Below are positions 12,698-43,283 of a stretch of 64,000 nucleotides of DNA, one piece after another (positions within the stretch are counted from its first letter, which is position 1; every line of letters begins with the position of its first letter). This DNA comes from Planctomycetia bacterium (GTDB lineage Bacteria; Planctomycetota; Planctomycetia; Pirellulales; JACPPG01). Location of the stretch: the NCBI GenBank assembly GCA_016191115.1, contig JACPPG010000005.1:23119-87118 (forward strand), given 5' to 3'. The position numbers and the translations under genes are program-made. Under the pieces are notes generated by a model, which had not been told where the DNA came from, made no database searches, and worked only from the letters and a program-made list of their open reading frames with translations.

Positions 12698-12854
12698 CAG
12701 GGCCGTTCACAGATTCAAGCTTGCCGGCGGCGCACCGGCGGGAAAGTGGGACAGGCACCGAGACGCAACGCCCGTCTGAAAGGACTTGCGCTGTTTATGC
12801 TCGGAGCCAGTCCCATTTTCCCGCCTCGCCATTTTGAAAAACAGAATGGCCCTG
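12698..12854 (+). mobile_element. 157-bp MITE-like element, copy A
   Basis: CAGGGCCGTTCACAG...CAGAATGGCCCTG, near-identical to five other copies. The flanking 10-mers are CACGTGGCCC (12688-12697) and CACCTGCCCC (12855-12864), 8 of 10 identical. Confidence 0.85.
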
Positions 12855-13028
12855 CACCTGCCCCCAACACGCTTGACGCGGATATGAATGATGACAGACG
12901 GCGTGCGACGAGGCAACGTGGCGGGACAGCGTCGGCGCCCGGCCTCCAGGCGCGCGGGACCCTGGTCGTCTACGGGCGCAGTAGCCGTGCCGCGGCATCC
13001 TCGACGGCCGGCGTAATCGAACAACGAC

Positions 13029-14594
13029 TCAGCGATCCGTGGCGCCGTGGGGCAACGAATCGGCACTCAACCGCCGGGCATTGATCACCCAGTCGCCCGG
13101 CTGAAGTGGCGGTGGCGATTGCTCGCGCGGGACGTTGATGAACTCGGCGTTTCGGAACGCCGGCAACCTGTCGGGCGCGACTTCGCGCACTGCCAGCCCG
13201 GTCATTCCCTTCGTGACCCAGTAGCAGCCGGCGCTCGAGGCGCCGAACTCGTCGTAGACGAAACGCCTGGCGACCGGCTTGTCGGCATCCGGCATGACGA
13301 AGACGACGCGCCGCGGCTCAGGCGGACCGTTTCTGGCGGCCTGTTCGACATCGGCACAGATCGCGTCCCACTCGATCCGCGACGGGACGAAGAAGTAATT
13401 GTGCAAGTGATAGCGCGTCAGTACGAAGGCGATGCCGACGGCGCATGCCAGCCCTACGCCGGCCACTCGTTGCCTCCCCTGCCCGTCCGTCATCAGCCGC
13501 CGCAAGTATCCCGACGTTGCCAGAATAAGGAGAAACAGGATCGTGACGCCGATGGCCGCCCTCGTGCGCAGCGGGAAGTGATCGGACGCGATCACCAGGT
13601 TAGGAACGTACGATACCGGAATCAGGGCCATTAGCGCGGCGATGCGTAGGGCACGGCTTGACCGCGACCCCTCTAAACGCAGCCAAAGACCAATGGGCAC
13701 GAAGATGCCCAGGATGCACAGTTCCACGGGAAGCATCTGCCACTTCTCCCAGTGATCGACGAAGAAGTACGGAATGCAAGACTGTCCTACCGGCTGGAGT
13801 ACGAACCGGCCCGCCTTCTTGACCAGGTTCGTGGCGAGTTCCGCCCGCGACGCGATGTCGATGTTCCGCACTTCGTGGACCATCAGCTTGAACGTCAAAA
13901 AGCTTGCGCCCAATGCGGCGACGAGGACTGCCGCGTGGATTTCCCATCGCAGGATTTGCCGGCGGGACCCGCCCCCCTGGGCGGCCACGGCCATCACGAG
14001 CATCGTGACATAGAACATGGCCGCCGGCTGATAAATGGAGAAGGCGACAAACAACACTCCGGCGGCCGCCAGGCCCAGAACTGCGGACTGCCAGACTTTA
14101 TCCCGCCGGCTGCTGGCCACCGCCAGCCAGAACGCCGTCATCGCCGTCAGGCAGGAGTATGCAAAGGCGGCGCATGTGGCCCATACCGCGTAGACGTTGA
14201 ACGTCGGCAGCAGCGCGGTCAGCGACGCGACCGCGACCGCCAGCAGCCACGAGTACTTGAGTCGCCGCAGGGACGCGTAAATTCCGACGACGAGGAGATA
14301 GATGCCGACCAGGGAGGCCAGTCGTGGCCGCCACAAGTCGCCAACGGACTCGGCGCCGTACCACGTCGCTTGAAAGATCAATCCGCTGGCCCATCGTCCC
14401 GCGGCATTCCAGATTTCCAAGACAGGCACGGGCTCCCACAGCAGCCAGTAGTCGTCCCGGTGAGCAACCATACCGGTGAGGCAAACAGAATATGCTCCGA
14501 AGACCGTCGCGGCCAGCAACAATGCCGCGATGACGTGCCCACGCAAGGCGCCGCGGTTTGGTATGGTGGTGTCGGCGGTGGCTCTGGTGGTCAT
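13029..14594 (-). CDS. Polytopic membrane protein, GT-C/GtrC-like putative glycosyltransferase
   Basis: About 12 predicted TM helices followed by a C-terminal soluble domain. Last gene of an operon with a GtrB-like GT2 and a methyltransferase. The ATG at 14594 overlaps the upstream stop (ATGA). The family assignment is an inference from topology and context. Confidence 0.6.
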   Translation of the reverse strand: MTTRATADTTIPNRGALRGHVIAALLLAATVFGAYSVCLTGMVAHRDDYWLLWEPVPVLEIWNAAGRWASGLIFQATWYGAESVGDLWRPRLASLVGIYLLVVGIYASLRRLKYSWLLAVAVASLTALLPTFNVYAVWATCAAFAYSCLTAMTAFWLAVASSRRDKVWQSAVLGLAAAGVLFVAFSIYQPAAMFYVTMLVMAVAAQGGGSRRQILRWEIHAAVLVAALGASFLTFKLMVHEVRNIDIASRAELATNLVKKAGRFVLQPVGQSCIPYFFVDHWEKWQMLPVELCILGIFVPIGLWLRLEGSRSSRALRIAALMALIPVSYVPNLVIASDHFPLRTRAAIGVTILFLLILATSGYLRRLMTDGQGRQRVAGVGLACAVGIAFVLTRYHLHNYFFVPSRIEWDAICADVEQAARNGPPEPRRVVFVMPDADKPVARRFVYDEFGASSAGCYWVTKGMTGLAVREVAPDRLPAFRNAEFINVPREQSPPPLQPGDWVINARRLSADSLPHGATDR

Positions 14595-15499
14595 GACGTT
14601 GGGCCCTGTGATTCCGCCTCTGCCCGCGACGGCCCGCATGAAAGCGAAGCACGCTTTTGCGCGGCCACAAACATGATGTCCCCCGAGTTCACCCACATGC
14701 CCATGCGATTCTGGCCGCCGATGGGAATGAGCCGGCTTATTGCCGAGGCAGCGCTATGCGTGAACCCCTTTCGCAACGCCGTCAGGCTCGACAGGACGCT
14801 ATGAAGAGTTCGATAGACGCTGATGGCCTTGGCCTCCACGATGGCAAAGCCGTGCCTGGCCAAGAACTGCGTCATGGTCCGGCGCGAGAAGTATTGTAGA
14901 TGCGTCGGCGGGTGAATCATGCGCCAGCGGCGGCCGCGCAGGCGCGCGAGCGGCGAGCCGACATCGCCCGTCGTCAGAAAGAGCCAACCGCTGGGCGGCA
15001 AAAGCCTTTCAATGCGTTCGACGACAAGATCGGGACGCGGCAAATGCTCGATCGTGTCCCACAAGCAATAGGCTTGATACTCTCCCGCCGCGATTGGTGA
15101 AGTCAAGAAATCGCCCACGATGACCCGCTGCCCAAGCTCGCTCGCGGCGTGCGCGACCGCCTCGCCGCAGACGTCAATTCCCGCTGCTCGCGCGCCGTGC
15201 GCCGAGGCGTACTCCAGAAACAGCCCGTACGCGCAGCCGATTTCGAACACGGTGTTGACGTCGTCGGCCAGCCGCCGCATGTCCCGCCAGCGGGCGGCGA
15301 AGTTTTGCACGTGAACCTGCCGATCAGCGAGATAGTCGCCGTACTCTTGCCCGAAGAAATAGGCCTCGGTGTAGATTCCGGTCGCGGCGGCAGGCGTCGG
15401 TAATTCCGCGGCACGCATGAAACCGCAGTTCCGACACCGGCAGAGTATCTGCCAGCGAGGTTCCCAGTCTTGGGTCCCGCAGACGATGCACGAAATCAT
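14591..15499 (-). CDS. Class I SAM-dependent methyltransferase with N-terminal Cys4 zinc ribbon
   Basis: CIVCG....CRCRNCGF ribbon. SAM motif I VFEIGCAYGLF. The remaining motifs are consistent with the Methyltransf_11/23 type. Confidence 0.8.
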   Translation of the reverse strand: MISCIVCGTQDWEPRWQILCRCRNCGFMRAAELPTPAAATGIYTEAYFFGQEYGDYLADRQVHVQNFAARWRDMRRLADDVNTVFEIGCAYGLFLEYASAHGARAAGIDVCGEAVAHAASELGQRVIVGDFLTSPIAAGEYQAYCLWDTIEHLPRPDLVVERIERLLPPSGWLFLTTGDVGSPLARLRGRRWRMIHPPTHLQYFSRRTMTQFLARHGFAIVEAKAISVYRTLHSVLSSLTALRKGFTHSAASAISRLIPIGGQNRMGMWVNSGDIMFVAAQKRASLSCGPSRAEAESQGPTS

Positions 15500-15502
15500 C
15501 CG

Positions 15503-16552
15503 TCAGCCCTCGGCGCGCCGTTTGTTGCCCACGGTCGCCGGCCGGTGATCGGCATCTCCCGTCGCGTCTTCGGAGCGGGTTTGCTTCGGTGACGGCTCCT
15601 TCAGCAGGTATAGCGGCCGCTGTTTCGCCTCCTCGTAGACCACGGCAAGGTATTCTCCCAAAAGGCCCGTGAACGTGAGCTGCACGCCGCCGAGTATCAA
15701 GATGACGGAGATCGTGGAGGTCCAGCCCGGCTCGATGCGCTTGAAGAATAACCAGGCCGTTAGAATGTAGATCAGGTAGGCAAACCCAGCCGCCGAGACG
15801 AGCAGGCCCACCCGCGTCGCCATTCGCAAGGGCGCGGAGGAAAATGAGATCACTGCCGCCATGGCCAGGCGGAACATCTTGGCCAGGCCGTAGGAGCTCC
15901 TTCCCGCGAACCGAGGCGGCGCCTCGAAGGGGACAAACGTCCGGTTGTATCCGATCCAAGAGACGATCCCGCGCAGAAACCTCTGCCGCTCGCGCACCGC
16001 GAGCAGCGCCTGGTGCGCTCGCCGCGAGAGCAGGCAAAAGTCCGCCACCCCAGGCACAACGTAGGTGTCGCTGAGCAGATTGATGAGCCGATAGAAGATC
16101 CCGGAAGTCGCCGTCTTCCACCACGACGCGCCGCGCGTCGACTGGCGAACGGCGGAAACAATATCCGCCCCAGCCTGCCAGCGGGCCACCAAGTCGGGAA
16201 TCAGCGACGGCGGATGCTGCAAGTCGGCGTCCATCATGATGACGGCGTCGCCGTCGGCAGCATCCAAACCGGCGGTCAAGGCGATTTGATGTCCAAAGTT
16301 TCGCGACAGCGAAATGACGCGGACGGCTGGATCTTCTCGGGAAAGTTCCTCCAAAACCCGCGGCGTGGCATCGCTGCTGCCGTCGTCCACGAGCACAATC
16401 TCGCTTTGGCAATCCGCAAGACCTGCAAGCGTCTGTCGCAACGCTTCATGAAACCGCCGCAATCCGGCGGCCTCGTTGTAACACGGGGCGACAATGCACA
16501 GCTTGTAAACACCACCGGGAGAACGAGCGGCGGCGGTCCCGTCAGCAAACAT
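15503..16552 (-). CDS. GT2 polyprenyl-phosphate glycosyltransferase (GtrB/ArnC/DPM1-like)
   Basis: KLCIVAPCYNE, VLVDDGSSD, IMMDADLQHPP, and two C-terminal TM helices, as in bactoprenol glucosyl/4-amino-arabinose transferases. Confidence 0.85.
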   Translation of the reverse strand: MFADGTAAARSPGGVYKLCIVAPCYNEAAGLRRFHEALRQTLAGLADCQSEIVLVDDGSSDATPRVLEELSREDPAVRVISLSRNFGHQIALTAGLDAADGDAVIMMDADLQHPPSLIPDLVARWQAGADIVSAVRQSTRGASWWKTATSGIFYRLINLLSDTYVVPGVADFCLLSRRAHQALLAVRERQRFLRGIVSWIGYNRTFVPFEAPPRFAGRSSYGLAKMFRLAMAAVISFSSAPLRMATRVGLLVSAAGFAYLIYILTAWLFFKRIEPGWTSTISVILILGGVQLTFTGLLGEYLAVVYEEAKQRPLYLLKEPSPKQTRSEDATGDADHRPATVGNKRRAEG

Positions 16553-17715
16553 GGAGCGGGCCTATGGCGGCCGACCGTGAGGGAAGAGCGGGCAACAAAT
16601 GGCTGCTTTGAGTTTAGTCGGCCCAGGAGACGGAGCCAACCGAACTGTCCGGCGACTTGCCCAGGGCCGTTCACAGATTCAAGCTTGCCGGCGGCGCACC
16701 GGCGGGAAAGTGGGACAGGCACCGAGACGCAGCGTTGGTATGAAAGGGCTTGCGCTGTTTGTGCTCGGAGCCAGTCCCATTTTCCCGCCTCGCCATTTTG
16801 GCCCTTCCCGTCCGGCGGCCGGCGGCGGCGGTCTTCGTTCGGGCGATCGATTCGGCCCTCGGCACCGCGATCTTCGAGGGCCGCCCTGTTCTTGCGGAAT
16901 TCGTGGCGGAACCACAGGCGGCGCAATTCGACTTGCATCTCGTCATAGGGCAGGCTCAACAGCCGCGACCGTTCCTCGTCGCGAACCTCCTCTTTGAGGA
17001 ACTGCTGCAGTTCCTCCTCGCTCGGCCGGCGCAGGCCTGCGAACTGCTTTCCTGGCCCTCCATGCCGCCGCGCTTGCTCAAACCAGCTCCACAAAAGCTT
17101 CGCGCGCTCCGACGGCTTTTCCGCCTTGTCCAGCTTGTCTTGTGCCTCGGCCGAGAGTGACTCGCGCAACTGCTGCAAGGCCGCACGATCTTCGGGTGAC
17201 GGGCCAGGACGGGCTCCCTCCGGCTGCCGGGCCTGCCACCGCTTTCGCATGAAGTCGTGCTTCAGGAACCAGGCCTCGATCGCCTCCAAATCCTGGGGGC
17301 TCAGCTTGTTGGCCTGGCGGCGGCGCTGCGCTTCGAGAATCTTGTCGATCTTCTTCAGCCGCTCCGCTGGCTCAAGCGATGCCAGGTCCGCGCGGTCCCC
17401 GGGCGGCAGCTCGCTGAGCCAGTCGTGATAGTTCTGCATCACCTTCCGCAGGTCGTCCTTGTCCGCGGCCGTGTCCAAGTCGTCATTCAACCGGCGCAGG
17501 CGGTCCTGCTGCGCGGGGTCGAGCCGCTGGAAGCGCTGGAAGTTCTGCGACAGCCGCTCCTTCTCCTCCTCATCGGCTTGAGCGAGCCGGGCCCGACGCT
17601 CGGGCGTACCATCCGCGCCCGCGGCCGGCAGGGCCCACGTCAGGACGGCGGCCACGGCAGTCAGCGACCCAAGGACAAACGACGCCGCACGAAGTTTGGC
17701 ATGTCTAGCGATCAT
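16276..17715 (-). CDS. Exported coiled-coil/Arg-Glu-rich protein of the ECF operon (DUF3106-like); C-terminus apparently extended by read-through into MITE copy B
   Basis: A signal anchor (LGSLTAVAAVLTWALPAAGA) is followed by a charged helical region with RW/LSP..R repeats down to about nt 16806. Downstream of that point the frame runs through the repeat element, then overlaps the start of the GT2 gene by 277 nt before the first stop at 16276. The native coding part is probably 16806-17715. Confidence 0.6.
   Translation of the reverse strand: MIARHAKLRAASFVLGSLTAVAAVLTWALPAAGADGTPERRARLAQADEEEKERLSQNFQRFQRLDPAQQDRLRRLNDDLDTAADKDDLRKVMQNYHDWLSELPPGDRADLASLEPAERLKKIDKILEAQRRRQANKLSPQDLEAIEAWFLKHDFMRKRWQARQPEGARPGPSPEDRAALQQLRESLSAEAQDKLDKAEKPSERAKLLWSWFEQARRHGGPGKQFAGLRRPSEEELQQFLKEEVRDEERSRLLSLPYDEMQVELRRLWFRHEFRKNRAALEDRGAEGRIDRPNEDRRRRPPDGKGQNGEAGKWDWLRAQTAQALSYQRCVSVPVPLSRRCAAGKLESVNGPGQVAGQFGWLRLLGRLNSKQPFVARSSLTVGRHRPAPCLLTGPPPLVLPVVFTSCALSPRVTTRPPDCGGFMKRCDRRLQVLRIAKARLCSWTTAAAMPRRGFWRNFPEKIQPSASFRCRETLDIKSP
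16662..16805 (+). mobile_element. 157-bp MITE-like element, copy B (3' end rearranged)
   Basis: Same sequence as copy A, but 12 nt (AAAAACAGAATG) are missing before the terminal GGCCCT and no clean flanking duplication is present. It lies inside the 3' part of ORF 16276..17715. Confidence 0.8.
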
Positions 17716-18214
17716 GATCCCCCTCGGCGTCGAGGAAGCCGCGGTCTTTCAATTTTCGCAAGAACTCGATGTCATCGACCTGGCGATATTGCTCGAGGTT
17801 TTCGATCACCGGTAGATCGCGCAAAAGCTCGTCGTTGGTGCGGTTCGAGAGTCCGCTCACGGCGAAGTAGCCCACTAGCGCCGCGGCCGCGATCGATCCG
17901 CCCGCCACGAGCCACGCGCGGCGCCGGCGGCGCGGCAATTCGGCCTGGCGCGTTTCAAGGTCCTCCTCCGCCTTGACCGCGATCATCTCCACCGTGCTGC
18001 GCGCGAACGACTCGTCGACCTCGGTCCGCGGCAGCTCGTCGAGCAGGTGCCAGCAGTGCTCCAACTGGCGCAGCTCCTGGCGCACGCCCGGATCGGCCGC
18101 CATAGCCTGTTCGACGCGGCTCGACTCGTCGGCGTCCAATTCGCCGTCGAGATAGCTGACCAGTTGTTCTTCCAGCCCGCGGTCGCCGGCGTCGGGCTCT
18201 TTTGATTCGCTCAT
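17705..18214 (-). CDS. Anti-sigma factor (single-pass membrane)
   Basis: It sits directly downstream of the ECF sigma gene with a 4-nt gap. The N-terminal LVSYLDGELDADE....VEQ....P..RQEL is an anti-sigma motif without the Zn ligands. One TM helix (AWLVAGGSIAAAALVGYFAV). Confidence 0.75.
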   Translation of the reverse strand: MSESKEPDAGDRGLEEQLVSYLDGELDADESSRVEQAMAADPGVRQELRQLEHCWHLLDELPRTEVDESFARSTVEMIAVKAEEDLETRQAELPRRRRRAWLVAGGSIAAAALVGYFAVSGLSNRTNDELLRDLPVIENLEQYRQVDDIEFLRKLKDRGFLDAEGDHDR

Positions 18215-18218
18215 GGGT

Positions 18219-18926
18219 CTAGTCCGTGGTGGGGCGATCCCCTCGTTCCAGGTACGGTTGCAACACTTCTTTCAAGTTCACGCGGGCCCGCGACAAGAGC
18301 GACTTGATCGCTTCGGGCGACATGTCCATGGTCTCGGCGATGTCGGCGTAGCTCATGTTTTCGAACTTGCTCAAGAGCACGGCCATCCGCTGCCGCTCGT
18401 TGAGGCTCTCGATGGCCATGCGGACGATGTCGCGCATCTCGGCCTTGTCCAATTGCCGGGTCGGCATGAGCCCGCTGGCGGCCTGCGCCAACTGGTCGAG
18501 CGATCCGGCGCTTTGGGCGCCGCTGTCGCTGGTGGCCAGGTTGATTTCCCTGCGGCGCGAGCGGGAGCGGCGGGCGTTGGCGGCCACGTTGTTGGCGATG
18601 GTGAATAGCCATGTGGAAAACTTCGATCCCGGCACGTACCGCTTGCGCGATCGGTACACGCGCAGGAAGACTTCCTGCGCCAGGTCCTCGGCCTGGTCGC
18701 GGGCGCCCACCAGGTGCTCGAGCACCATGACCAGCCGGTTCTGGTAGCGGAGCATCAACTCCTCGAACGCCGTGGCGCTATCGGCGCGCACCTCGAGCAT
18801 CAGCCGCACGTCGGGATCGCGCAGCTCGTAGCGCTGGGCGGACGATTCGCTGACAACCAAGCGCGCGCCCTCGATACGGTCGTCGGGACTGGAAGACGCA
18901 GTGGCGAAGCCACGGGCCGCGTCCAT
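18219..18926 (-). CDS. ECF-type RNA polymerase sigma-70 family factor
   Basis: Region 2 (AEDLAQEVFLRVYRS) and region 4 HTH (MSYADIAETMDMSPEAIKSLLSRAR). The start may be an internal Met. Confidence 0.9.
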   Translation of the reverse strand: MDAARGFATASSSPDDRIEGARLVVSESSAQRYELRDPDVRLMLEVRADSATAFEELMLRYQNRLVMVLEHLVGARDQAEDLAQEVFLRVYRSRKRYVPGSKFSTWLFTIANNVAANARRSRSRRREINLATSDSGAQSAGSLDQLAQAASGLMPTRQLDKAEMRDIVRMAIESLNERQRMAVLLSKFENMSYADIAETMDMSPEAIKSLLSRARVNLKEVLQPYLERGDRPTTD

Positions 18927-19155
18927 TAGACAAGTCTAGGCGACCGACGGCCTTGCGGCCAAGCGTTCCGGTTGCGACGGTCTCTTTCGGCAGTTCCGGC
19001 TAGGAATTAAACCCCGCCATGGCCCGCCGGTGTCTTGAAAGGCCCTCCGCGCCAAAGCCGCCGCCAAATGGGCTCCGTCCGGGCCCTTCCGCTACAACGC
19101 GGTGGCCGGGCCTTCGCTGGCTGGCGCGGCGGGTTTCATGGTTCGGCCGCGGGAG

Positions 19156-20889
19156 TCATCTCCCCGGCGACGTTCCGCCAAATTCGGCGGCGAACGCCTT
19201 CGGGTTGAGCTCTTCGCCCGTGGCGTGTTTGGTGAGCGCGTTCCAGCTCAGGCTGCGGCCGAGGGCGAACACCTTCGAGCGCATGAACTCGCCCACTTGC
19301 TTGTTGTCGGTGTAAAACGCGCGGGCCGGGTTGTCGGTCTTGAGCACTTCGCGGGCGATCGCCTGATGGACCTGGCAGGCGAACAATTGCCCCATCATGT
19401 AGTTGTGGTAGTAGGCCGGGGCCGAGACGACGTGGATCTTGCTGGCGTAGTCGGGCGCGTTGCGCCCCTCGGGCCGCTTGAGCAACTGGTACTTCTCGAC
19501 CAGGTCCCACCACAGCTTGTTCAGGTCCTGGCCGGGATCGGCGTACATCGCCTTCTCGAATCGCAGCATCACCTGGCACCACCGCGAGAAGATCAAAAGC
19601 TGGTTGCGGCGCATCTTCATGCCGGTTTCCGTGTACGCGGCCGGGTCCGGCACCGCGACGCCCATCTTCACCAGCCACGCCCCGTTCTTCGAGAATCGCT
19701 CGAACATCATCGCCACGCCCTCGGTACACAGGATGTGCGCGTCGGTCCGCAGTACGTAGGGCATGCTCGGCGGGATGTTCTTGCTGCTGTAGACCGAATG
19801 GCCCAGCTCGTGCAACATCGTGCCCATCCAGTATTCGTTGGACACGATATTGGCAAGCACGCGCACATCTCCCTGCCGATCGATATCGGTGCAAAAGGCG
19901 TGCGGGCTTTTGCCGGGTTTTTCGTACAGGTCGCTGCGGGCGATCACGTCGTCGATGGAGAGGCCGATCCCCGCGTAGAACGTCCGGCACAGGCCCAGGA
20001 TGTCGGCCGAGGCAAACGGTGAATCCAGGTTGACGGTGAAAATGGCCGGGCTTTCCTGGAAGAACGGGTCGTGATAGTGCCAGGGGCGCAGCTCGTCGAC
20101 GTCGATTCCGTAGTTCAAGGAAAGCTTAGCGTCGATCTCGCGCTTGGCGTCGGCGAACGGCCGCCGTGTCAGATCGTCCAAGGCGTCGAACAGCTTCAGC
20201 ACCTCGGCCTGGCTCTGTTCGTTGAGCTCAAGCTGCATGGCGTGATAGTCGGCAAAGCCCAGCTTGCGTGCCGCTTCGTTGCGCAAGAGCACCAGTTGCT
20301 GGAGGTCCGCTTCGACCGCGCGACCCACTTCCTTACTCGCCTCCCAGACACTCTTGCGCTCCGCGGAGTCCTTCGATTCCTTGAGTATCTTGCGGACTTC
20401 GCTATCGGCGAGCTGCTTGTCGCCGACCTTGGCGCGATAGACGTTGAACGCCTTTTCGATTTCGTTGGCCTTGGCGGTGATCCGCTTCAGGAGCGCGGGA
20501 TCGACCTGTTTTTCCAGATAGATGAGATAGAGAATGTCGATCTGCCGCTTGACCAGCGGATCGGCGATGGGCGACGCTTTGATCGACTTGAGCTCGGCAA
20601 ATCGCCGCGAGTCGGCCAAAGCCTGGTCCAGCTTGTTCTGTGCCTCGACCTTGGCGGCGAAATCTTCATCCTTGCCGGTGGTGTTTGCGTTCCACCACGC
20701 CTGGTTGGCGGCGATCTCGAGCGGCCGGAGCTGCGCCTCGTGCTCGGCAATGAACGTGGCGGCCCGCTTGTCGTTTTCCGCTTCGTTCGCTCGCGCTGCG
20801 ATTGGCATGGCCGTCCCTTCCACTAGTGCCATCACGATCGAGAGCAAAACGGGCCAGCGCCGCGAAGGCGCGTCGGGGTAAGTCGCCAT
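19156..20889 (-). CDS. Zinc metallopeptidase, M2 (ACE-like) / M3-like family, exported
   Basis: HExxH in MLHELGHSVY. N-terminal ANQAWWNANTTGKDED resembles peptidyl-dipeptidase A family proteins. Probable start MATYP... at 20889, followed by a hydrophobic signal region. Confidence 0.75.
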   Translation of the reverse strand: MATYPDAPSRRWPVLLSIVMALVEGTAMPIAARANEAENDKRAATFIAEHEAQLRPLEIAANQAWWNANTTGKDEDFAAKVEAQNKLDQALADSRRFAELKSIKASPIADPLVKRQIDILYLIYLEKQVDPALLKRITAKANEIEKAFNVYRAKVGDKQLADSEVRKILKESKDSAERKSVWEASKEVGRAVEADLQQLVLLRNEAARKLGFADYHAMQLELNEQSQAEVLKLFDALDDLTRRPFADAKREIDAKLSLNYGIDVDELRPWHYHDPFFQESPAIFTVNLDSPFASADILGLCRTFYAGIGLSIDDVIARSDLYEKPGKSPHAFCTDIDRQGDVRVLANIVSNEYWMGTMLHELGHSVYSSKNIPPSMPYVLRTDAHILCTEGVAMMFERFSKNGAWLVKMGVAVPDPAAYTETGMKMRRNQLLIFSRWCQVMLRFEKAMYADPGQDLNKLWWDLVEKYQLLKRPEGRNAPDYASKIHVVSAPAYYHNYMMGQLFACQVHQAIAREVLKTDNPARAFYTDNKQVGEFMRSKVFALGRSLSWNALTKHATGEELNPKAFAAEFGGTSPGR

Positions 20890-21010
20890 TTCGTGCCGTT
20901 TCCAGGCGAGAAGAAGGTCTGATGATGCCGCAATCGACATGGTCCCGCCGCATGCCGGCAAGCCTACCTTACCGGCTGAAACCGCGATTTCAAGCGGGCC
21001 CGGCGCCTGC

Positions 21011-21167
21011 CAGGGCCATTATGTTTTTCAAAATGGCGAGGCGGGAAAATGGGACTGGCTCCGAGCAGAAACAGCGCAAGTCCTTTCAGACCAACGTTGC
21101 GTCTCGGTGCCTGTCCCACTTTCCCGCCGGTGCGCCGCCGGCAAGCTTGAATCTGTGAACGGCCCTG
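21011..21167 (-). mobile_element. 157-bp MITE-like element, copy C (inverted orientation)
   Basis: The reverse complement matches copies A/D/E/F end to end. The flanking 10-mers CGGCGCCTGC and TGTCGCCCGC are 7 of 10 identical. Confidence 0.85.
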
Positions 21168-21305
21168 TGTCGCCCGCCAAACCCGCCCGTGCAAGCACGG
21201 GAAAGCCCGATCGCTGTTAACGGAAATGTAACGGCCGTCCGGCCGGCGGCCAGCGTAGCTTATGGATAGGGGCAACGAGGTCGGAAACCAAGAGGAGGAC
21301 GGGCC

Positions 21306-24258: not shown

Positions 24259-24261
24259 ACG

Positions 24262-32149: not shown

Positions 32150-32287
32150 GATCGAATCCCTTTGTTCTTTGCGTGGAAAAACGGCGGATCCGTTGGCGCG
32201 CCGCACAAAACACCGGCGCGCGAGGCCCGAAGGACCAGCAGTATCCGATAAAACAAGAGGCGCTTCAAGCGGCGGGAGGAGCAATTG

Positions 32288-32444
32288 CAGGGCCGTTCAC
32301 AGATTCAAGCTTGCCGGCGGCGCACCGGCGGGAAAGTGGGACAGGCACCGCGACGCAACGTTGGTCTGAAAGGACTTGCGCTGTTTATGCTCGGAGCCAG
32401 TCCCATTTTCCCGCCTCGCCATTTTGAAAAACAGAATGGCCCTG
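32288..32444 (+). mobile_element. 157-bp MITE-like element, copy D
   Basis: Full-length copy flanked by a perfect 11-bp direct repeat AGGAGCAATTG (32277-32287 and 32445-32455). Confidence 0.9.
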
Positions 32445-32732
32445 AGGAGCAATTGGCGAACCGTAGGGTGCTCTGCGAGCACCGGAGGTCCGATCTTGTG
32501 CGCACAGTGCACACAACACCGCCCGTGGCGGCCGTCTGCGAGCCGCTAGTGGCCGTGCCTACCACCGCTGGAACCGGAAGCGAACGACCGGCGTAGCCAT
32601 CTTCGATTTGCCCCAGACGCGTGCCCGCGCTCGCGACGACCACACGTCGCTCACCGGGTTTCCCTGGATGTAGCTGCAGGGCGCTCTGCGAGGACCTGCG
32701 CGTCCGCGCGATTCCGGTGTCCGCAGGACACC

Positions 32733-35653: not shown

Positions 35654-35700
35654 TCCGCCCTGCGCCGGATGCCGCGACCTGCGCGCAGCGCGCTTCGCAA

Positions 35701-35771
35701 AGAGGCCGGTGGGAGTCGAACCCACTTTGACCGGGTTGCAGCCGGTTGCCGGGCCGTCTGGCTCCAGCCTC
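35701..35771 (-). tRNA. tRNA-Cys (anticodon GCA)
   Basis: The minus strand reads GAGGCTG GA GCCAGACGGCCCGGC A ACCGG CTGCAAC CCGGT CAAA GTGGG TTCGACT CCCAC CGGCCTC T. It has a 7-bp acceptor stem (one G-U), a CU-GCA-AC anticodon loop, a TTCGACT T-loop and the U73 discriminator typical of tRNA-Cys. CCA is not encoded. Confidence 0.85.
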
Positions 35772-35948
35772 GCTCTTGGTCTGCCCAGCGCGAACCGGGG
35801 CAGATGTACGATTACATCGGTTCTACGAGGGGTACGGCTTAAGGGCGGGCCTAATGGGTGGTTGTGACACCCGTTGGGCGTGCTATCACGCGTACTTCGG
35901 GTTCGATTGTCTTTCCGGATTTGACGCTAGGGCTTTTCCGAACAAGAG

Positions 35949-38228
35949 TTGCGCGGGGTAGTGTGCACCGGACTGCGCGGCGGCCGCCGGAATGGTCCGG
36001 GCAAATGCGTGGGCCACGTCGTCGCCGCGGACGGGTCCCCGGTTCAAACCGGAAGTCTCCTGGGGAGAGGTCTTGTGGGATTGCGCCGAACCAAGCCAAC
36101 GCGCCGACGTGCCGTCACGATGGTGCTTGCCGCCTTCATGATGGTTGGCCTGCTGGGCATGGTGGCCTTCGCCATGGACGTGGGCTACGTGGTGCTCGTG
36201 CGCAGTCAGCTTCAGGCTGCCGCCGACTCGGCCGCCATGGCCGCCGCGGCGGTGATGGGCAACGATCCCAAGGAAGCTCTCAGCACCGCCCGTCAGTACG
36301 CCGCCTATCACGTTGCCGGCGGCGCGAACGTGCAACTCGTCGACGCCGACGTTGAGTTCGGCGTGTGGGACACGACGACCCGCACGTTTATGCCCATGAA
36401 CACGGCCGGGAACGCGATTCGCATCACGGCGCGACGCGACGAGAACGCGGGTGGCGAGGCGCCGCTGTTCTTTGCCCGCGTGCTGGGACAGAACAGCTTC
36501 AGCATGTCGGCCTCGGCCGTGGCGATGTGCAATCCGCGCGACATTGCGTTCGTCGTGGATCTGTCGGGATCGATGAACGACGACACCGAGCCGGCGTGGG
36601 CCACGGCAGCGATCAACAGCGCGTTCGGCGGCATGTCCGGCGACGCGTTGATGCAAGCCGTGTACAGCGACTTCAATTTCGGGTCGTTCCCCGGCACGCT
36701 GCAATACGTCGGCGAGCCGCTGAGCGTCGTGACTACCTCGAGCGCGTATGCGGCCCTGACAAGCGACGTGGGACCATTGTCGCTACCGGCCGTGCCGGCG
36801 GCCTACCGGATTCTACCGACGGACAACGAGGCGCAGCGGAAGGTGAAGGGATATAGCTGGATCATCGACAATCAGCTTGCGGTGATCATGCCCAACGCCA
36901 AGCCCACGCCCGACAGCACGCAGAACTACGCGTACTACGAGAAGTATCTGGACTACATCATGCGGAGCTTGACGATCGCGCCGCCGCCGTCGCCGAGCCC
37001 GAGTCCGTCTCCCAGTCCATCCCCATCCCCTTCACCGTCTCCCAGCCCGTCGCCGGCGCCGGCGCCGCCATCTCCTCCCCCACCCCCGGCCCCTCCGCCC
37101 ACGCCGAAACCGCCGCCGATCGGCGTGTGGCCCAGCGATCCGGGCATACGGCTCGTCTCGCTCGGCGGTTTGCTTGAGAACCCGAGCGGCGCGGGAGGCA
37201 ACCGGCGCGTTCCCGACAACCTGCTGGCGATGAACTCCGGCGGCGTGTGGACCGAGCTGGTGCTGCCGCAACTGGCCTTGGGCGCAAGCTATTCGGCGAC
37301 GACGCCGCCGTTGAGCCGCGGGACGCTGCCCCCCAGCCAGAGCAGCTACCGGATCGACGGATTCAATAATCCCAACACCGCGGCCTATCCTGGGCTCAGC
37401 ATCAGCGTGCCGCGCTCGTACCGCAACTACGTGGGCTACCGCACGTACGCGCAGTTCCTGATGGACTACGGCCGGGACGTCAAGGTTGTGGCATCACTCT
37501 ACGGGACGCTGTCGCTCAATAGCGGCGCCGCGCCCACGCACATGGAAGGGACGGCGGGGGGCACGTTCATGTTCCCGCCGCGCGAGCAACCGACGCACGC
37601 GGCCCGTCGTTCGTTGATCGCCGCGCTGAAAGTGGTCAAGGACCAGAACATCAACGTTCCGGCCGCGAATCAGCGCGACTGGGTTTCGATCGTCAGTTTC
37701 GACAAAGTGGCCGCTTTGACGTTAGCTCTGACCTCGGACTATGACGCGGTCATGCAGGCCTGTACGCAGTTGCAGGCCGTCGGCGATATCGGGGCATCCA
37801 CCGCGACCGAAGCCGGATTGAGCACGGCCATTGCCCATTTGTCAGGCGCCGGGCGACAGAACACGAACAAAGATATCGTCCTCTTGACCGACGGAATCCC
37901 CAACACTTACTCGAGCTCCTCGCAGACCATCAACGGTTACATCAACGCCAACCCAAACGCCGATTTCTACAACGACGGTTCCTATTGGACCGACGCGGCC
38001 CTGATGCAAGTCTCCAAGGCGCGCGGCAAGAACTGGCGCGTGTACGCCGTGGGTCTGGGTGGCGGCTGCGACTACAACTTCATGGACCGCGTCGCCCGGC
38101 TGGGCGGCACGGCCGACGCCGCCGGCCAGAGTCCGCGCGGGACGGGCGACCCCATGTCGTACGAGCAGACGCTGACCAAGATTTTCAAGGATATTATTAC
38201 ACAGCCCCAAGTTCGCCTCGTGCAGTGA
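35949..38228 (+). CDS. TadE/TadG-like N-terminal domain protein with von Willebrand factor A domains and a Pro/Ser-rich linker
   Basis: N-terminal membrane/pseudopilin-like segment RRRAVTMVLAAFMMVGLLGMVAFAMDVGYVVLVRSQLQAAADSAA. MIDAS motif DIAFVVDLSGSMND. A (SP)n/(P)n tract at about 36990-37110. A second vWA-like region (VSIVSF...VLLTDGIPN). The exact start is uncertain and may lie downstream of 35949. Confidence 0.8.
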   Translation: MRGVVCTGLRGGRRNGPGKCVGHVVAADGSPVQTGSLLGRGLVGLRRTKPTRRRAVTMVLAAFMMVGLLGMVAFAMDVGYVVLVRSQLQAAADSAAMAAAAVMGNDPKEALSTARQYAAYHVAGGANVQLVDADVEFGVWDTTTRTFMPMNTAGNAIRITARRDENAGGEAPLFFARVLGQNSFSMSASAVAMCNPRDIAFVVDLSGSMNDDTEPAWATAAINSAFGGMSGDALMQAVYSDFNFGSFPGTLQYVGEPLSVVTTSSAYAALTSDVGPLSLPAVPAAYRILPTDNEAQRKVKGYSWIIDNQLAVIMPNAKPTPDSTQNYAYYEKYLDYIMRSLTIAPPPSPSPSPSPSPSPSPSPSPSPSPAPAPPSPPPPPAPPPTPKPPPIGVWPSDPGIRLVSLGGLLENPSGAGGNRRVPDNLLAMNSGGVWTELVLPQLALGASYSATTPPLSRGTLPPSQSSYRIDGFNNPNTAAYPGLSISVPRSYRNYVGYRTYAQFLMDYGRDVKVVASLYGTLSLNSGAAPTHMEGTAGGTFMFPPREQPTHAARRSLIAALKVVKDQNINVPAANQRDWVSIVSFDKVAALTLALTSDYDAVMQACTQLQAVGDIGASTATEAGLSTAIAHLSGAGRQNTNKDIVLLTDGIPNTYSSSSQTINGYINANPNADFYNDGSYWTDAALMQVSKARGKNWRVYAVGLGGGCDYNFMDRVARLGGTADAAGQSPRGTGDPMSYEQTLTKIFKDIITQPQVRLVQ

Positions 38229-38293
38229 CGAGAGGACGCCGCACGTCACCTTCCCCGAGCGGGGGCATTGGCTCGCGCCAGCGCGTCCCCGCC

Positions 38294-38450
38294 CTGGGCC
38301 GTTCACAGATTCAAGCTTGCCGGCGGCGCACCGGCGGGAAAGTGGGACGGGCACCGAGACGAAACGTTGGTCTGAAAGGGCTTGCGCTGTTTATGCTCGG
38401 AGCCAGTCCCATTTTCCCGCCTCGCCATTTTGAAAAACAGAATGGCCCTG
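38294..38450 (+). mobile_element. 157-bp MITE-like element, copy E
   Basis: Full-length copy whose first bases are CTGGGCC instead of CAGGGCC. It is flanked by a perfect 10-bp direct repeat CGTCCCCGCC (38284-38293 and 38451-38460). Confidence 0.9.
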
Positions 38451-38567
38451 CGTCCCCGCCACGTTTGCTCGTCGCGGGCGATCGGCCGAGTTACAATAGC
38501 AGCATCGTTCGCCACGGCCGGCACGGCGATCGATTCTCAACCGGACCCTCTATCGCGCGGGCATAGC

Positions 38568-39749
38568 ATGATTCACTTGAAGCTCCTCGGTCCCCTCGCC
38601 GTTTGTTGCCTTACGGTCGTGTTCTCCGGCTGCTCGCGGTCGTCGTCGGACGCCGTGGCTTTGCCAACCGAGGGCCGCACCAGCCATGCCGACGGGCGCG
38701 TGGAAATCATCTCCCAGGTTTACGACATCGACCGCATCTACCGCTCGATGACCGGGCCGTGGAGCGCGAACCAGGTCCAGCTCGTCGAGGGGGATCGGCC
38801 GGAACTGGTATGGATCACCGGCTGCCACGTCGAAATGGTCGGCTCCGACGGCGCTACCAGCATGCCCGAGCAGTTCATGTGCCACGCCAACCTGGACTAC
38901 GACGTGGAGAAGCACAGCGAGCTGTTTCACTTCACGAAGCGGCTGGACGGTCGGCTGTTCACGCTGTCGCAGGGTCAGTTGCACGTCGAGTTTCCCAAGG
39001 GGTTCGGCATCCCCGTGATGTCGAACGAGGCCCTGGACCTGGCCACGCAAGTGCTCAACTTGAACGTCAAGGATCGGGCGTTCCAGGTGCGGCACAAGGT
39101 ACACGTCGATTTCGTGCGCGATCGCGACGCCGCCGAGCCCTTCAAGCCGCTGTACGAGTGCGGCGTGTCGAGCATGGTGTCGCTCGAGGGACGCAGCCTG
39201 GTCTTCGATCAAGGCGATGAGCCCGAGCACGGGCCGTGCAAGTCGTGCTGCATCCCCGGCGCCAAGGCCACCGACTGGGAGCACCAGAACGATTCGCTGG
39301 GCCGCATGTACAGCGGACACTGGGTGATCAAACCGGGCCGCGAAGAGAACCGTACCCGGGCCACGACTATCATGTCGCTTCCCTTCGACACCACGGTGCA
39401 TCACATCGCCGTGCACCTGCACCCGTTCGCCGAATCGCTCGAGCTCGTTGACCTGACGACCGGCGCCTCGATCTTCAAAAGCCACGCCCGCAATTTCGAG
39501 GATCAGATCGGGCTGGCGCACGTGGACTACTTCTCGAGCGCCGAAGGAGCGCCACTGCCAAAAGACCACGAGTACGAGCTGGTAAGCGTGTACAACAACA
39601 CGACCTGCCAGGACCAGGACTCGATGGCGGTGATGTACCTGTACCTGCTGGACAAGGAATTCAAGAAGCCGGAGATCACGGCAGCCTCTTCCGACGAGAC
39701 GCAGGCCGGCACGGAGCCGCTGAAGACGGCGCCCGGGGCGGCGGGGTAG
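38568..39749 (+). CDS. Lipoprotein of unknown function with clustered His motifs
   Basis: The ATG at 38568 gives MIHLKLLGPLAVCCLTVVFSGC (lipobox). The body contains FMCHANLDYD and TTVHHIAVHLHPF, a possible metal site. The upstream part of the listed ORF is MITE sequence. Confidence 0.7.
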   Translation: MIHLKLLGPLAVCCLTVVFSGCSRSSSDAVALPTEGRTSHADGRVEIISQVYDIDRIYRSMTGPWSANQVQLVEGDRPELVWITGCHVEMVGSDGATSMPEQFMCHANLDYDVEKHSELFHFTKRLDGRLFTLSQGQLHVEFPKGFGIPVMSNEALDLATQVLNLNVKDRAFQVRHKVHVDFVRDRDAAEPFKPLYECGVSSMVSLEGRSLVFDQGDEPEHGPCKSCCIPGAKATDWEHQNDSLGRMYSGHWVIKPGREENRTRATTIMSLPFDTTVHHIAVHLHPFAESLELVDLTTGASIFKSHARNFEDQIGLAHVDYFSSAEGAPLPKDHEYELVSVYNNTTCQDQDSMAVMYLYLLDKEFKKPEITAASSDETQAGTEPLKTAPGAAG

Positions 39750-39752
39750 AGG

Positions 39753-40016
39753 CTACGGCACGCCGATCACCTTCTCGGCGTCGTTCTCGGTGGCTCCGGA
39801 TAGTCTCATGGCGTCGCCCACTTTTTGCTGGAGGCGATCGAGCTTCACCATCGCAGCCGCGCGCTCGGATGCTGTCGACTCTTTACAGGGGATGACCCCA
39901 TACCGCGCTCTCCCCGACTCGTCTTCCACGACGATGCCCTCGCCTTCCGTGACCTTGGCCAAGAACGAGCGAACGGGCTCGCTAAGGTGGGTGATTGTGA
40001 TTCGCTGCCAGCTCAT
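39753..40016 (-). CDS. Small Phd/YefM-like antitoxin-domain protein (no adjacent toxin)
   Basis: In the 87-aa product, ITITHLSEPVRSFLAKVTEGEGIVVEDESGRARYGVIP resembles the Phd/YefM N-terminal fold pattern. No partner ORF was found. Confidence 0.5.
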   Translation of the reverse strand: MSWQRITITHLSEPVRSFLAKVTEGEGIVVEDESGRARYGVIPCKESTASERAAAMVKLDRLQQKVGDAMRLSGATENDAEKVIGVP

Positions 40017-40114
40017 GAAAGACTCCTTGCGTCCATCCAGCGCGAGAACCGTGCGACAACCAGCACCGCGGCGGTCGGACCCCCCTCTGACTATACGTCA
40101 ACCCCGCCGCCCCT

Positions 40115-41098
40115 TCACCCCAGCAGCCAGCGGGCCAGGTTGAAGTAGATCAACAACGTCGCCATGTCGGCGATGGCCAGGGCGATGGGGCCGGCCGCCA
40201 CTTGTGGATCGCGGCGCGCCATCCGCAGCAGGTTGGGCATGGCCAGCCCGATCGTCGCGGCGCAGGCCACGCCGCCGGCAATGCCCCCCATGAGCGCCAG
40301 GGCGAAACGCGGCTGGCCGAGCCACACGAGCGCCACGACCGCCACCAGCGCCCCGCACGCGCCGCCCAGCAAAACGCCCGTCGCCAGCTCGCGGCGCAGC
40401 TTCGTGGCCAGGCTTGCCCACCGCGGCGTCTGCCCGTGCAGCATCGCGATCGCCAGCGTCACGGATTGAATGCTGACGCTTTCGGCCAGGGCCAGCACGA
40501 CCGGCATGAAGAGCGCCAGGGCGACCGTCTGCTGCAACTGGGCCTCGAACAGTTTCGACAGTAAGGCCGCCAGAATGCCTCCGCCGATATTGGCCAGCAA
40601 CCACGGGAAGCGGCCGGCGAACGCGGCCGCCGCGCTGGCCTGCTGCGCTTCGGCGACGTGTACGCCGATCATCTGAAAGACGTCCTCTTGTCGCGCGGAT
40701 CGGTCGAGCTCCGCCAGCTCGTCGGTGTACAGGTCGATATCGACGACGCCGACGATGCGGCGGTCGGCATCGACCACGGGAAACGCCAGCAGGCGATGCA
40801 TGAGAAAGAATTCGCACGCTTCGAGCACGGTAGCGGCGCGAGGGATCGCAATCACGTTTTCGACCATGATGTCGGCCAGCCGGGTGGCAGCGTCGCTCAA
40901 CAGCAGGCGGCGCGTGGGAATCACGCCCGCCAGGCGCCCGTCGGCGTCCACGACGTAGAAATAGATGATCCGCGATTGCGGCTTCTCGGCGTGTACGGCG
41001 GCCAGGGCCTCGCCGACCGTCTGATCGACGCGCAGCCGCGTGTAGTCGCGGTGCATGCCGTCTTCAACGGAGTCGTGCAAACCGGTGCTTTTCAGCAT
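40115..41098 (-). CDS. mgtE: Magnesium transporter MgtE-type (CBS pair plus MgtE membrane domain; lacks the long N-domain)
   Basis: Two CBS motifs are followed by five TM helices with the MgtE signature ...ALFMPVVLALAESVSIQS... and PQVAAGPIALAIADMATLLIYF. Confidence 0.8.
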   Translation of the reverse strand: MLKSTGLHDSVEDGMHRDYTRLRVDQTVGEALAAVHAEKPQSRIIYFYVVDADGRLAGVIPTRRLLLSDAATRLADIMVENVIAIPRAATVLEACEFFLMHRLLAFPVVDADRRIVGVVDIDLYTDELAELDRSARQEDVFQMIGVHVAEAQQASAAAAFAGRFPWLLANIGGGILAALLSKLFEAQLQQTVALALFMPVVLALAESVSIQSVTLAIAMLHGQTPRWASLATKLRRELATGVLLGGACGALVAVVALVWLGQPRFALALMGGIAGGVACAATIGLAMPNLLRMARRDPQVAAGPIALAIADMATLLIYFNLARWLLG

Positions 41099-41109
41099 GG
41101 CCGCGCGAC

Positions 41110-42969
41110 CTAAGACCCGGCGGGCGGACCGGCCGCGCCTCGCGCCTCGGCCAAGGCGCCGTTCGGCTGCTGCTTCGCGCGCTCTTCGAGCGCGGCATCG
41201 AGAATCGCCATGACGTCGGGGACTTGCGCGGCCCGCTGCGTTTCGGCCTCGAGTTGGACGACCGTTTCCTGTTCTTTCTGCATATTGATCCGGTGGTTGG
41301 CCGCGTCAAACAACCCCAAGTTCGCGCCTTCGTATCCTTTCAGCTTTTTGACGCTTTCCATGCCTTGACTCGTCGCGTCGGCCCAGTGAGATGCCAGCTT
41401 CCGCGCGCTGTCGGCGTCGACGATTTGTTTTATGTCGGCCAGCAACTGCTCCTGTATCTTCATGATCTTCGCGGGGAGCTCGAGCATCTCCTTCTTCTCG
41501 CCCGGCTTAAGGTCCTTGCGGCGTGGAGGAGGGGCATCGGATGGCGCGGGCGCCGGCGCCGCCTCACCATCAGCGGAGGCGTAGGCCGCCAGCATGCGGA
41601 CGATCGGGATACGGCCCCGCCAGTTGACCGTGCTCGGCGGCGCGGCGTTTGGGGACGGGGCCGGCGCTTTGGCGGGCGTCCCCGGGTCGGGGGTGTTGTC
41701 AGGAGCCGCGGGCGTGCGAGCGGCGGCGGGGGTCCCCGGATTGGCCGCCGGCGAAGCGGAGGGAGGCGTTCCCGTCGGCATCGGATTCGGCATCGCCGGC
41801 TGCGCGCCCGGCGGTTGAGTGAAACTGCCGCCCGGTGGCGCCACGGGATTGCGCGGCGCGGGCGCCGGTGCAGGCGGCGCCTTTGCCGTTGGTTGCGGGT
41901 TGGTCGGCGCGGGCGCTGGTGCCTGAGCGACCTGCGGGGAGCCGGCCGGCCGTGGCGCGGCGCCGCCGCCCGAACCCGTGAACGCCCACACGAGGATCAG
42001 ACCCACCACGAGCGCCGTGACGCCCGCCGCGCCTCCGTATACCGCGATTGCCGGCATGCCCAGGATTGTCCCGGCCTTGGCTCTTCGGCCGGACGACTTG
42101 GACGGCGTCAGCAGCGCGCCTCCAGCGGACGGCTCGGCGGCCGCTGCCGCCAGGGGAGCGCCTTCGCCCAGCGCGTCGAGAATGCCCACGTTCAGATCCT
42201 GCCCCGAGCCCGACGCATCATCCAATGAAACGGCGGCGCCACCTTGGTCCGCGACAGGCTCGCCCGCTTTCTCCTGCTTCTCCGGCACGCGCTGCTTCTT
42301 CTTGCAGCGTGGGCAAGTAATCTGCCGACCGGCGGCGGCCGCGGGAATGCGGATCTTCGCGCCGCAGCTCGTGCAAACGATCCGTTGCCGCTCGTCAGCG
42401 GCCGTTTTTGGCGCCGCGTCGCCACCAGCGGTCGTCGGTAATGCACCGCTGGCTGCTGGCGCCGCGGCCGAACGACTCGCCACCTTTCCGGACCCTTCTC
42501 CCAATGGAGCCAGACTGAAGTCCTCGTCCACGGCCGAATCGGCGGTGGGGGATGCGTCAGGTCTTGGTATCGAGCGTTCCCCTTGGTTTGTCGAGGCGAC
42601 CGGTTCAGCGGGCGCCGCCTTGCCACTCGCGGCGACCTTGCCCGGATGCTCCTCAATCGGCGCCAGGCCGATGTTGCTGTCCCCGGCGGGCGAGCGCAGC
42701 GGCGCGGAGCCGCCCCCAACGGGAGGGCTGGGCTGCCGCAGACGGCTGGTGATCGAGAACGGGGCCGGCTCGGACTTGGCTGGCTGGCTCGGAGAAGCTT
42801 CGGCCGCCGGCGCGCCCTCGAGCGGCACCAGGTCCATCCCGTCCTCGGTCTCAATGGCCGGAACCGTGATGGCCGCCTGGCAGTGCGGGCAGCGACCGCG
42901 CTGGCCGCCGTACTTCTCCTTCATCCGAAGGATCGCCCCGCAACTCGGGCAATTGAATACGATGATCAT
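41110..42969 (-). CDS. Double zinc-ribbon membrane protein with long Pro/Ala-rich low-complexity regions
   Basis: The ATG at 42969 gives MIIVFNCPSCGAILRMKEKYGGQRGRCPHCQ. A second ribbon CTSCGAKIRIP....ITCPRCKK. One TM helix (AIAVYGGAAGVTALVVGLILVWAF). P/A-rich spacers. Confidence 0.75.
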   Translation of the reverse strand: MIIVFNCPSCGAILRMKEKYGGQRGRCPHCQAAITVPAIETEDGMDLVPLEGAPAAEASPSQPAKSEPAPFSITSRLRQPSPPVGGGSAPLRSPAGDSNIGLAPIEEHPGKVAASGKAAPAEPVASTNQGERSIPRPDASPTADSAVDEDFSLAPLGEGSGKVASRSAAAPAASGALPTTAGGDAAPKTAADERQRIVCTSCGAKIRIPAAAAGRQITCPRCKKKQRVPEKQEKAGEPVADQGGAAVSLDDASGSGQDLNVGILDALGEGAPLAAAAAEPSAGGALLTPSKSSGRRAKAGTILGMPAIAVYGGAAGVTALVVGLILVWAFTGSGGGAAPRPAGSPQVAQAPAPAPTNPQPTAKAPPAPAPAPRNPVAPPGGSFTQPPGAQPAMPNPMPTGTPPSASPAANPGTPAAARTPAAPDNTPDPGTPAKAPAPSPNAAPPSTVNWRGRIPIVRMLAAYASADGEAAPAPAPSDAPPPRRKDLKPGEKKEMLELPAKIMKIQEQLLADIKQIVDADSARKLASHWADATSQGMESVKKLKGYEGANLGLFDAANHRINMQKEQETVVQLEAETQRAAQVPDVMAILDAALEERAKQQPNGALAEARGAAGPPAGS

Positions 42970-43126
42970 GACTGCGCCAGCGTAATTGAACTGCCGTTCG
43001 AGGGTGGGAAGCTCCCGCAAATTCGAGGCATGATCCCCGGCCGCGGCCGAACTTATGGCGGGGTAGGGGCGGAACGTCCATCATCGCCTGTTCTGGCCGT
43101 AAAGACAAGAAAGGGACCACCCGAGA

Positions 43127-43283
43127 CAGGGCCGTTCACAGATTCAAGCTTGCCGGCGGCGCACCGGCGAGAAAGTGGGACAGGCACCGAGACGCAACGT
43201 TCGTCTGAAAGGACTTGCGCTGTTTATGCTCGGAGCCAGTCCCATTTTCCCGCCTCGCCATTTTGAAAAACAGAATGACCCTG
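43127..43283 (+). mobile_element. 157-bp MITE-like element, copy F
   Basis: Full-length copy flanked by a perfect 10-bp direct repeat CCACCCGAGA (43117-43126 and 43284-43293). Confidence 0.9.

Follow-up and report, generated by a model that had tools for sequence, protein, structure and literature searches.

A 64-kb stretch of contig JACPPG010000005.1 from a Planctomycetia bacterium (in the following, the window) harbors six near-identical sequences of a 157-bp element. These repeats are almost certainly a miniature inverted-repeat transposable element (MITE), i.e. a non-autonomous DNA transposon, and the family is genuine, recently amplified and lineage-restricted. Taken as a whole, the observations are best explained by a 157-bp MITE that is probably moved in trans by a transposase of the ISAs1 family. 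The initial annotation, which was made from the DNA letters, had proposed a non-autonomous transposable element, and this is borne out by inverted terminal repeats, target-site duplications of 10-11 bp and the lack of coding capacity.

The positions and strands of all six copies in the initial annotation were reproduced by alignment and with two internal probes of 20-25 nt. Each probe has six exact matches in the window, where none are expected (none in 100 shuffles). Five copies have the full length of 157 bp, namely copy A (12698-12854, plus strand), copy C (21011-21167, minus strand), copy D (32288-32444, plus strand), copy E (38294-38450, plus strand) and copy F (43127-43283, plus strand). 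Copy D is nearest to the consensus, and copy E carries the tip variant CTGGGCC. Copy B (16662-16800, plus strand) is shorter at its 3' end, a remnant of 139 bp whose right end is missing its last 18 nt. Pairwise identity among the copies amounts to 95-98%. They diverge from the consensus by approximately 1.7%, mostly through private substitutions, and at 11 of the 14 variable positions only one copy deviates. As the differences are mostly private, this star-like pattern indicates a recent burst from one source. Neither an nhmmer profile built from the copies nor blastn detected a seventh or diverged copy in the 64 kb. The very high density that had been pointed out holds for the window, with six copies in 64 kb or one per 10.7 kb, but the clustering of the copies within it is not significant (P ~0.09).

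The ends of the element are imperfect inverted repeats, as noted initially. The tips CAGGGCCGTTC and CAGGGCCATTC, i.e. CAGGGCC(G/A)TTC, match at 10 of 11 positions, and the terminal inverted repeat is clean over these 11 bp; extended to 23 nt, the ends match at 16 positions. A second block, TTCAA at nt 17-21, is common to both ends, and complementarity of the arms runs through most of the element. Either strand forms one long hairpin, with folding energies of -81 and -71 kcal/mol (z = -6.3 and -4.6). At 157 bp, the element is below the upper size of approximately 600 bp that applies to MITEs. Six-frame translation of the 157 bp yields short peptides only, and no Pfam or ISAs1 matches were found within the element. 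A possible remnant of a transposase-coding region was considered because a TGA is located 18 nt from the right tip, as in several ISAs1 elements; this candidate was rejected, as the peptide is unlike the C-terminus of YhhI, the H-repeat transposase of E. coli K-12.

The five full-length copies are flanked by target-site duplications, of which three had been called perfect and two decayed, and both statements were confirmed. Copy D is enclosed by AGGAGCAATTG (32277-32287 and 32445-32455, 11 of 11 positions), copy E by CGTCCCCGCC (38284-38293 and 38451-38460, 10 of 10) and copy F by CCACCCGAGA (43117-43126 and 43284-43293, 10 of 10). The flanks of copy A, CACGTGGCCC at 12688-12697 and CACCTGCCCC at 12855-12864, match at 8 of 10 positions, and those of copy C, CGGCGCCTGC at 21001-21010 and TGTCGCCCGC at 21168-21177, at 7 of 10. 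Based on 200,000 random site pairs located 157 bp apart in the same window, the probability of a chance match is 3.5e-5 for 10 of 10 positions, approximately 1e-3 for at least eight and approximately 5e-3 for at least seven. The decayed duplications of copies A and C are significant against this null as well.

The insertions were also recovered in the Logan assembly of run SRR12113392, which contains the same organism. The Logan contigs L013, L019, L020 and L021 show 100% identity to the window over 2.6, 4.25, 4.7 and 3.9 kb, respectively, and confirm seven element/flank junctions at 100% identity. These include the right junction of copy A (L021), the junction of copy C at 21011 (L019), the left junction of copy D (L013), the right junction of copy E and the left junction of copy F (both L020). 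The independent reproduction of seven junctions shows that the repeats are not an assembly artefact. Each of the contigs ends 26-40 nt inside an element; six of the ends are co-linear with the window, and for five of these the distance is 26-28 nt. Such ends are expected of a short-k de Bruijn graph at a multi-copy repeat.

Copy B differs between the two assemblies. Its 3' end had been described as rearranged and as reaching position 16805. The end is indeed abnormal, but it is not rearranged in place: it results from a 110-bp deletion, the remnant ends at 16800, and positions 16801-16805 are host DNA that resembles a tip by chance. Window and Logan assembly are separated by a 110-bp indel at window position 16800/16801 (L019 4251-4360) and are otherwise 100% identical over approximately 15 kb. 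Past window position 16801, contig L019 contains 110 extra nt, which consist of 92 nt of host DNA followed by the intact 18-nt tip CAGGGCCATTCTGTTTTT. The host part comprises the final 24 codons of an orphan gene, its TGA and then GGCAAGTCGC. The same GGCAAGTCGC is present at the opposite end of copy B in the window, where the surviving duplication at 16652-16661 reads GCGACTTGCC, its reverse complement. In the intact Logan allele, copy B is thus enclosed by a perfect 10-bp duplication, GGCAAGTCGC, which argues for a canonical insertion and a later deletion of 110 bp. Missing from the window allele are the final 24 codons of the orphan gene with its stop codon, one copy of the duplication and the 18-nt tip, and the join shows at most 1 nt of microhomology. 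Contig L019 passes the breakpoint unbranched, which indicates that the deleted allele is absent or rare in SRR12113392.

The orphan gene (16801-17715, minus strand) lacks its native end in the window and reads through copy B to position 16276. Its native length was taken from the Logan allele and not from relatives. The G+C content at third codon positions (GC3) of the open reading frame (ORF) 16276-17715 is 0.81 before the element, 0.60 inside it and 0.66 after it, and the long ORF through copy B is a read-through of non-coding sequence. Position 100 of the element (32387 in copy D, 16761 in copy B) is the sole tri-allelic site, with A in four copies, G in copy B and C in copy C. The read-through ORF reaches 479 codons because the only in-frame stop on the minus strand is abolished by the G at this position. 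The product of the orphan gene is a charged secreted protein, and its own Logan copy was the only homologue among 5.8 billion proteins. The gene is the last member of an apparent operon on the minus strand (16807-18926), following genes for an extracytoplasmic function (ECF) sigma factor (18219-18926) and a zf-HC2 anti-sigma factor (17705-18214).

The locus of copy D allowed a comparison with relatives. The CCP_MauG cytochrome c peroxidase encoded beside this copy is 100% identical to the NCBI protein MBI2823305.1. Its next-best homologue among 5.8 billion proteins is only 70% identical, which indicates that no close relative is on record. The local gene order is retained in three metagenome-assembled genomes (MAGs) of Pirellulales whose proteins are 66-68% identical, and the spacer preceding the peroxidase gene measures 257-313 bp in them. 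Copies fixed at orthologous sites of relatives, which the initial annotation had named as the mark of a conserved cis-element, were not found: the spacer of all three genomes is without the element, and nhmmer detected no trace of it in their 88 kb (best E = 0.53). After excision of the element and one duplication in silico, the spacer aligns to those of the relatives over a promoter-like block and the ribosome-binding region. The promoter-like block (32240-32270, minus strand, upstream of the CCP_MauG gene; GCTTGAAG...TTTTATCGGATACT) consists of TTGAAG, 17 nt and GATACT, and the duplication of copy D ends 8 bp upstream of TTGAAG. This block, which is conserved with the three Pirellulales MAGs, may serve as an example of a planctomycete promoter. 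The element itself carries an outward-facing hexamer, TTGAA(T/A), exactly 15 nt from each tip (nt 17-22; 32304-32309 and 32423-32428 in copy D), which resembles the TTGAAG -35 box of the conserved local promoter. It is speculation that this hexamer forms hybrid promoters together with flanking DNA, and none were called by the consensus scan.

Further copies were sought by comparing a concatenated six-frame translation of the element to a protein collection. At least four were found on other contigs of 24-156 kb (proteins P0122, P0123, P0124 and P0125), all annotated 'MAG ... [Planctomycetia bacterium]', and these contigs probably belong to the same MAG as the window. The element was not detected in any other organism among the protein matches to its translation, blastn against 72,556 plasmids gave no match, and a scan of viral contigs revealed none. 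The sole match in JGI metagenomes (L001) was rejected, as it is a chance 20-mer in a coding region with unrelated flanks. The genes of these four proteins possess element-derived 3' tails and encode a condensation/WS-DGAT-like enzyme, a DUF1501 protein, an ABC-2 permease and a Ser/Thr kinase. The DUF1501 gene has lost the last ~19 of 390 model positions to the element, and the kinase ends at model position 160 of 263, just past the DFG motif. The element copy associated with the kinase is more diverged (77% at the peptide level). The family is therefore dispersed in the genome and also enters coding sequence.

No transposase was encoded in the window according to the initial annotation, and this was supported by a domain scan of approximately 50 window ORFs, in which no transposase, integrase or recombinase domain was found, and by tblastn of an ISAs1 transposase against the window, which gave no match. 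The autonomous partner had consequently been regarded as unknown. It is indeed not located in the window, but the tip CAGGGC and the 10-bp duplication narrow it to one family. Elements of the ISAs1 family end in CAGGG and generate direct repeats of 8-10 bp. The E. coli K-12 H-repeat transposase YhhI, which carries the domains DDE_Tnp_1_assoc and DDE_Tnp_1 and is flanked by CAGGG tips on both sides, matched 891 plasmid records in tblastn. A panel of nine ISAs1 elements was composed of the K-12 H-repeat and eight of ten annotated plasmid loci with definable ends, with hosts from Proteobacteria, Actinomycetota and Cyanobacteriota. Eight of the nine start with CAGGG, most of them with CAGGGC, and one with CACGG; the duplications are perfect over 10 bp in seven elements and comprise 9 bp in one, and none is left around the old H-repeat. 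This agrees with published descriptions, in which ISAs1 inverted repeats of 14-22 bp begin with CAGGG and direct repeats have 10 bp (PMC11946415). ISArsp11 has the inverted repeat CAGGGCTGATGCAAAGTCG (start CAGGGCTGATG) and 10-bp direct repeats (PMC6305408).

The element thus shares CAGGG(C) at both ends and the 10-bp duplication with ISAs1 family members such as the H-repeat/ISEc1, ISRm21, ISPa60 and ISArsp11. It differs from them in that ISAs1 elements are 1.17-1.8 kb long and encode a transposase with DDE_Tnp_1_assoc and DDE_Tnp_1, whereas the element has 157 bp and is non-coding. ISPlr1 of Planktothrix, with the inverted repeat CAGGGCTGTTTCA and 10-bp direct repeats, was described without naming its family (PMC4766695). 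Its inverted repeat is identical to the left tip of the element at 9 of 13 positions, and its direct repeats are likewise of 10 bp. However, ISPlr1 is a full-length autonomous cyanobacterial insertion sequence and reportedly prefers GC-rich palindromic repeats as targets (PMC4766695), a preference that is not evident at the six sites in the window. ISRm21 (S. meliloti pSymB; L005 445-600 and 1739-1789) was observed inside a longer inverted or dispersed host repeat with 37-nt arms that are 95% complementary, and its 10-bp duplication, CCCTTGAGGG, is part of the repeated sequence. A preference of ISAs1 elements for palindromic targets is possible.

Judged from tip and duplication, the partner of the element is likely to be a member of the ISAs1 family. 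In the proposed mechanism, an ISAs1-family DDE transposase (DDE_Tnp_1_assoc and DDE_Tnp_1) encoded elsewhere in the planctomycete genome would move the element in trans. This enzyme would recognize the CAGGGC-type terminal repeats and cut at the tips, the cut tips would be joined to the target with a 10-bp stagger, and gap repair would generate the duplication. Copy B would represent such an insertion, which later lost 110 bp spanning the tip and the 3' end of the neighboring gene.

Several observations weigh against this explanation. Past the 6-nt tip the element matches ISAs1 ends at 8-12 of 20 positions and IS4 at 12 of 20; the assignment to ISAs1 therefore rests on CAGGGC and the length of the duplication. 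The clean terminal repeat of 11 bp (10 of 11 matching) falls short of the 14-22 bp given for ISAs1. A transposase of any kind was not found among the window ORFs, and the Logan assembly of SRR12113392 showed no empty-site allele. The duplication of copy D has 11 bp instead of 10. The duplications of copies A and C contain two and three mismatches, respectively, above what a copy divergence of approximately 2-3% predicts; copies A and C may be older insertions, or the copies of the family may be homogenized by gene conversion.

Some of these points would also fit a MITE whose partner lies outside ISAs1, i.e. a strict IS4-family or an undescribed DDE transposase with a stagger of approximately 10 bp, and this is the more tenable of the alternatives, though an improbable one. 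Duplications in the IS4 family are approximately 10 bp as well (PMC2266710), so that duplication length does not separate the two families. ISAs1 and IS4 transposases both carry the DDE_Tnp_1 domain, and the element shows no extended similarity to the sampled ISAs1 ends past the tip. The two IS4-family members sampled from E. coli K-12, however, differ at their ends: IS4 ends in TAATGCC and makes a 12-bp duplication, IS186 ends in CATAAGC, and neither has the CAGGG that is found in eight of nine ISAs1 elements; an exact 10-bp duplication is shared by seven of the nine.

It is less likely still that the element is an orphan, i.e. that the transposase has since been lost from the lineage and the copies are immobile relics. 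The lack of a transposase in the 64 kb, the lack of an empty-site allele in the Logan assembly and the decay of two duplications would be in line with this. On the other hand, the copies share 95-98% identity and their differences are mostly private, the insertions that truncate the DUF1501 and kinase genes are still unpurged, and the 110-bp tip deletion differs between two assemblies that are otherwise 100% identical. Near-identical copies, unpurged insertions and the allele difference together point to very recent activity.

A conserved structured RNA gene or a cis-regulatory hairpin (terminator, stabilizer or small RNA) that is repeated for its function is very improbable, although the fold is very stable on both strands and the copies lie near gene ends and promoters. 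The copies are enclosed by target-site duplications, their orientation relative to neighboring genes is inconsistent, and some of them disrupt genes. The comparison with Rfam that the initial annotation had suggested gave no match to the element at the gathering score, and a relaxed search returned miRNA-hairpin noise only, at 14-19 bits against thresholds of 70-137. A consensus scan detected no sigma-70-like promoter or intrinsic terminator pattern in the element. Moreover, the orthologous spacer of the relatives lacks the element despite conservation of the promoter block. A palindrome of the repetitive extragenic palindrome (REP) or REPIN type spread by a RAYT (IS200/IS605-like Y1) transposase would share the palindromic architecture and the intergenic location, but can be dismissed almost entirely, as the element has 157 bp, starts with CAGGG and is flanked by 10-bp duplications, whereas REPs are not known to be flanked by target duplications. 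REPs have 20-40 bp and GTAG or CGTC heads (PMC3733652).

The fused genes reveal a further regularity. In P0122, P0123 and P0124, the tail starts only after the first 15-20 nt of the element, much as copy B is broken 18 nt from its tip. These four independent fusions of gene and element (copy B, P0122, P0123 and P0124) lack the terminal repeat and the adjacent host DNA. Deletions are what is seen in such a search because only events that remove a stop codon create a read-through ORF, but this ascertainment leaves the near-constant breakpoint on the element side unaccounted for. One-ended cleavage by the transposase with subsequent end joining, structure-specific cleavage of the hairpin, and an artefact of the MAG pipeline are all possible causes. 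A more far-reaching proposal, which we regard as doubtful, is that the element is the first described ISAs1-derived MITE and the first characterized MITE of Planctomycetota, that it is still attacked by a live transposase, and that the tips are lost through one-ended or hairpin cleavage, resection and end joining. If true, this tip-cleavage route would let a MITE immobilize itself and truncate or fuse neighboring genes. Recurrent deletions of tip and flank, if biological, would provide a small testable clue to the decay of MITEs.

Examples of bacterial MITEs are the Correia elements of Neisseria, ERIC/IRU and the IS231-derived MIC231. Further examples are MaeMITEa-h of Microcystis (PMC2779907). 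All of these resemble the element in being short non-coding sequences that form hairpins, occur in multiple copies and lie mostly between genes, and they share with it terminal inverted repeats, target duplications and the need for a transposase acting in trans. In sequence, the families from Microcystis and Neisseria, ERIC/IRU and MIC231 are unlike the element. No described ISAs1-derived MITE and no characterized MITE of Planctomycetota were found in the open-access literature, which is weak evidence of novelty in both cases. The element is a new sequence family of an ordinary kind of mobile element and does not overturn current understanding. MITEs disrupt genes, move promoters and cause breaks in assemblies, and thereby reshape bacterial genomes; they are little documented in Planctomycetota or from the ISAs1 family. 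In this genome the damage comprises a truncated DUF1501 gene, a Ser/Thr kinase gene cut in the kinase domain and the removed end of the ECF-sigma-linked gene, and one copy is located 8 bp from a conserved promoter. The element provides a defined consensus, and CAGGGCCRTTC tips together with a 10-bp duplication form a diagnostic signature that can be used for the annotation of the MAG, the hunt for the partner transposase and the flagging of repeat-induced contig breaks.

The window has a G+C content of approximately 65% and encodes ordinary chromosomal functions, among them pectate lyase, glycosyltransferases, ECF and RpoD-type sigma factors, cysteine desulfurase, NifU and MgtE. A DUF1559/N-methyl protein typical of planctomycetes is also present. 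According to GC3-based gene calls, copies A, C, D, E and F are intergenic and located near gene ends, in no consistent orientation relative to the neighboring genes. Copy A lies between the stop codon of a 555-amino acid ORF (13029) and the 5' end of the pectate lyase gene (10477-12690, minus strand), and copy C upstream of an M3 peptidase gene (19156-20961, minus strand). Copy E is positioned between two plus-strand genes and copy F in a divergent intergenic region. A tRNA gene at 35701-35771 (minus strand; RF00005, 44.5 bits) is the sole Rfam match in the window and is unrelated to the copies of the element. An ORF at 140-5044 (plus strand, 1634 amino acids), which runs off the start of the window, contains five DUF4082 domains, eight Big_5 Ig-like repeats and a region with similarity to CopC; its G+C content by codon position is atypical, with a lower value at the first position (0.51) than at the second (0.58).

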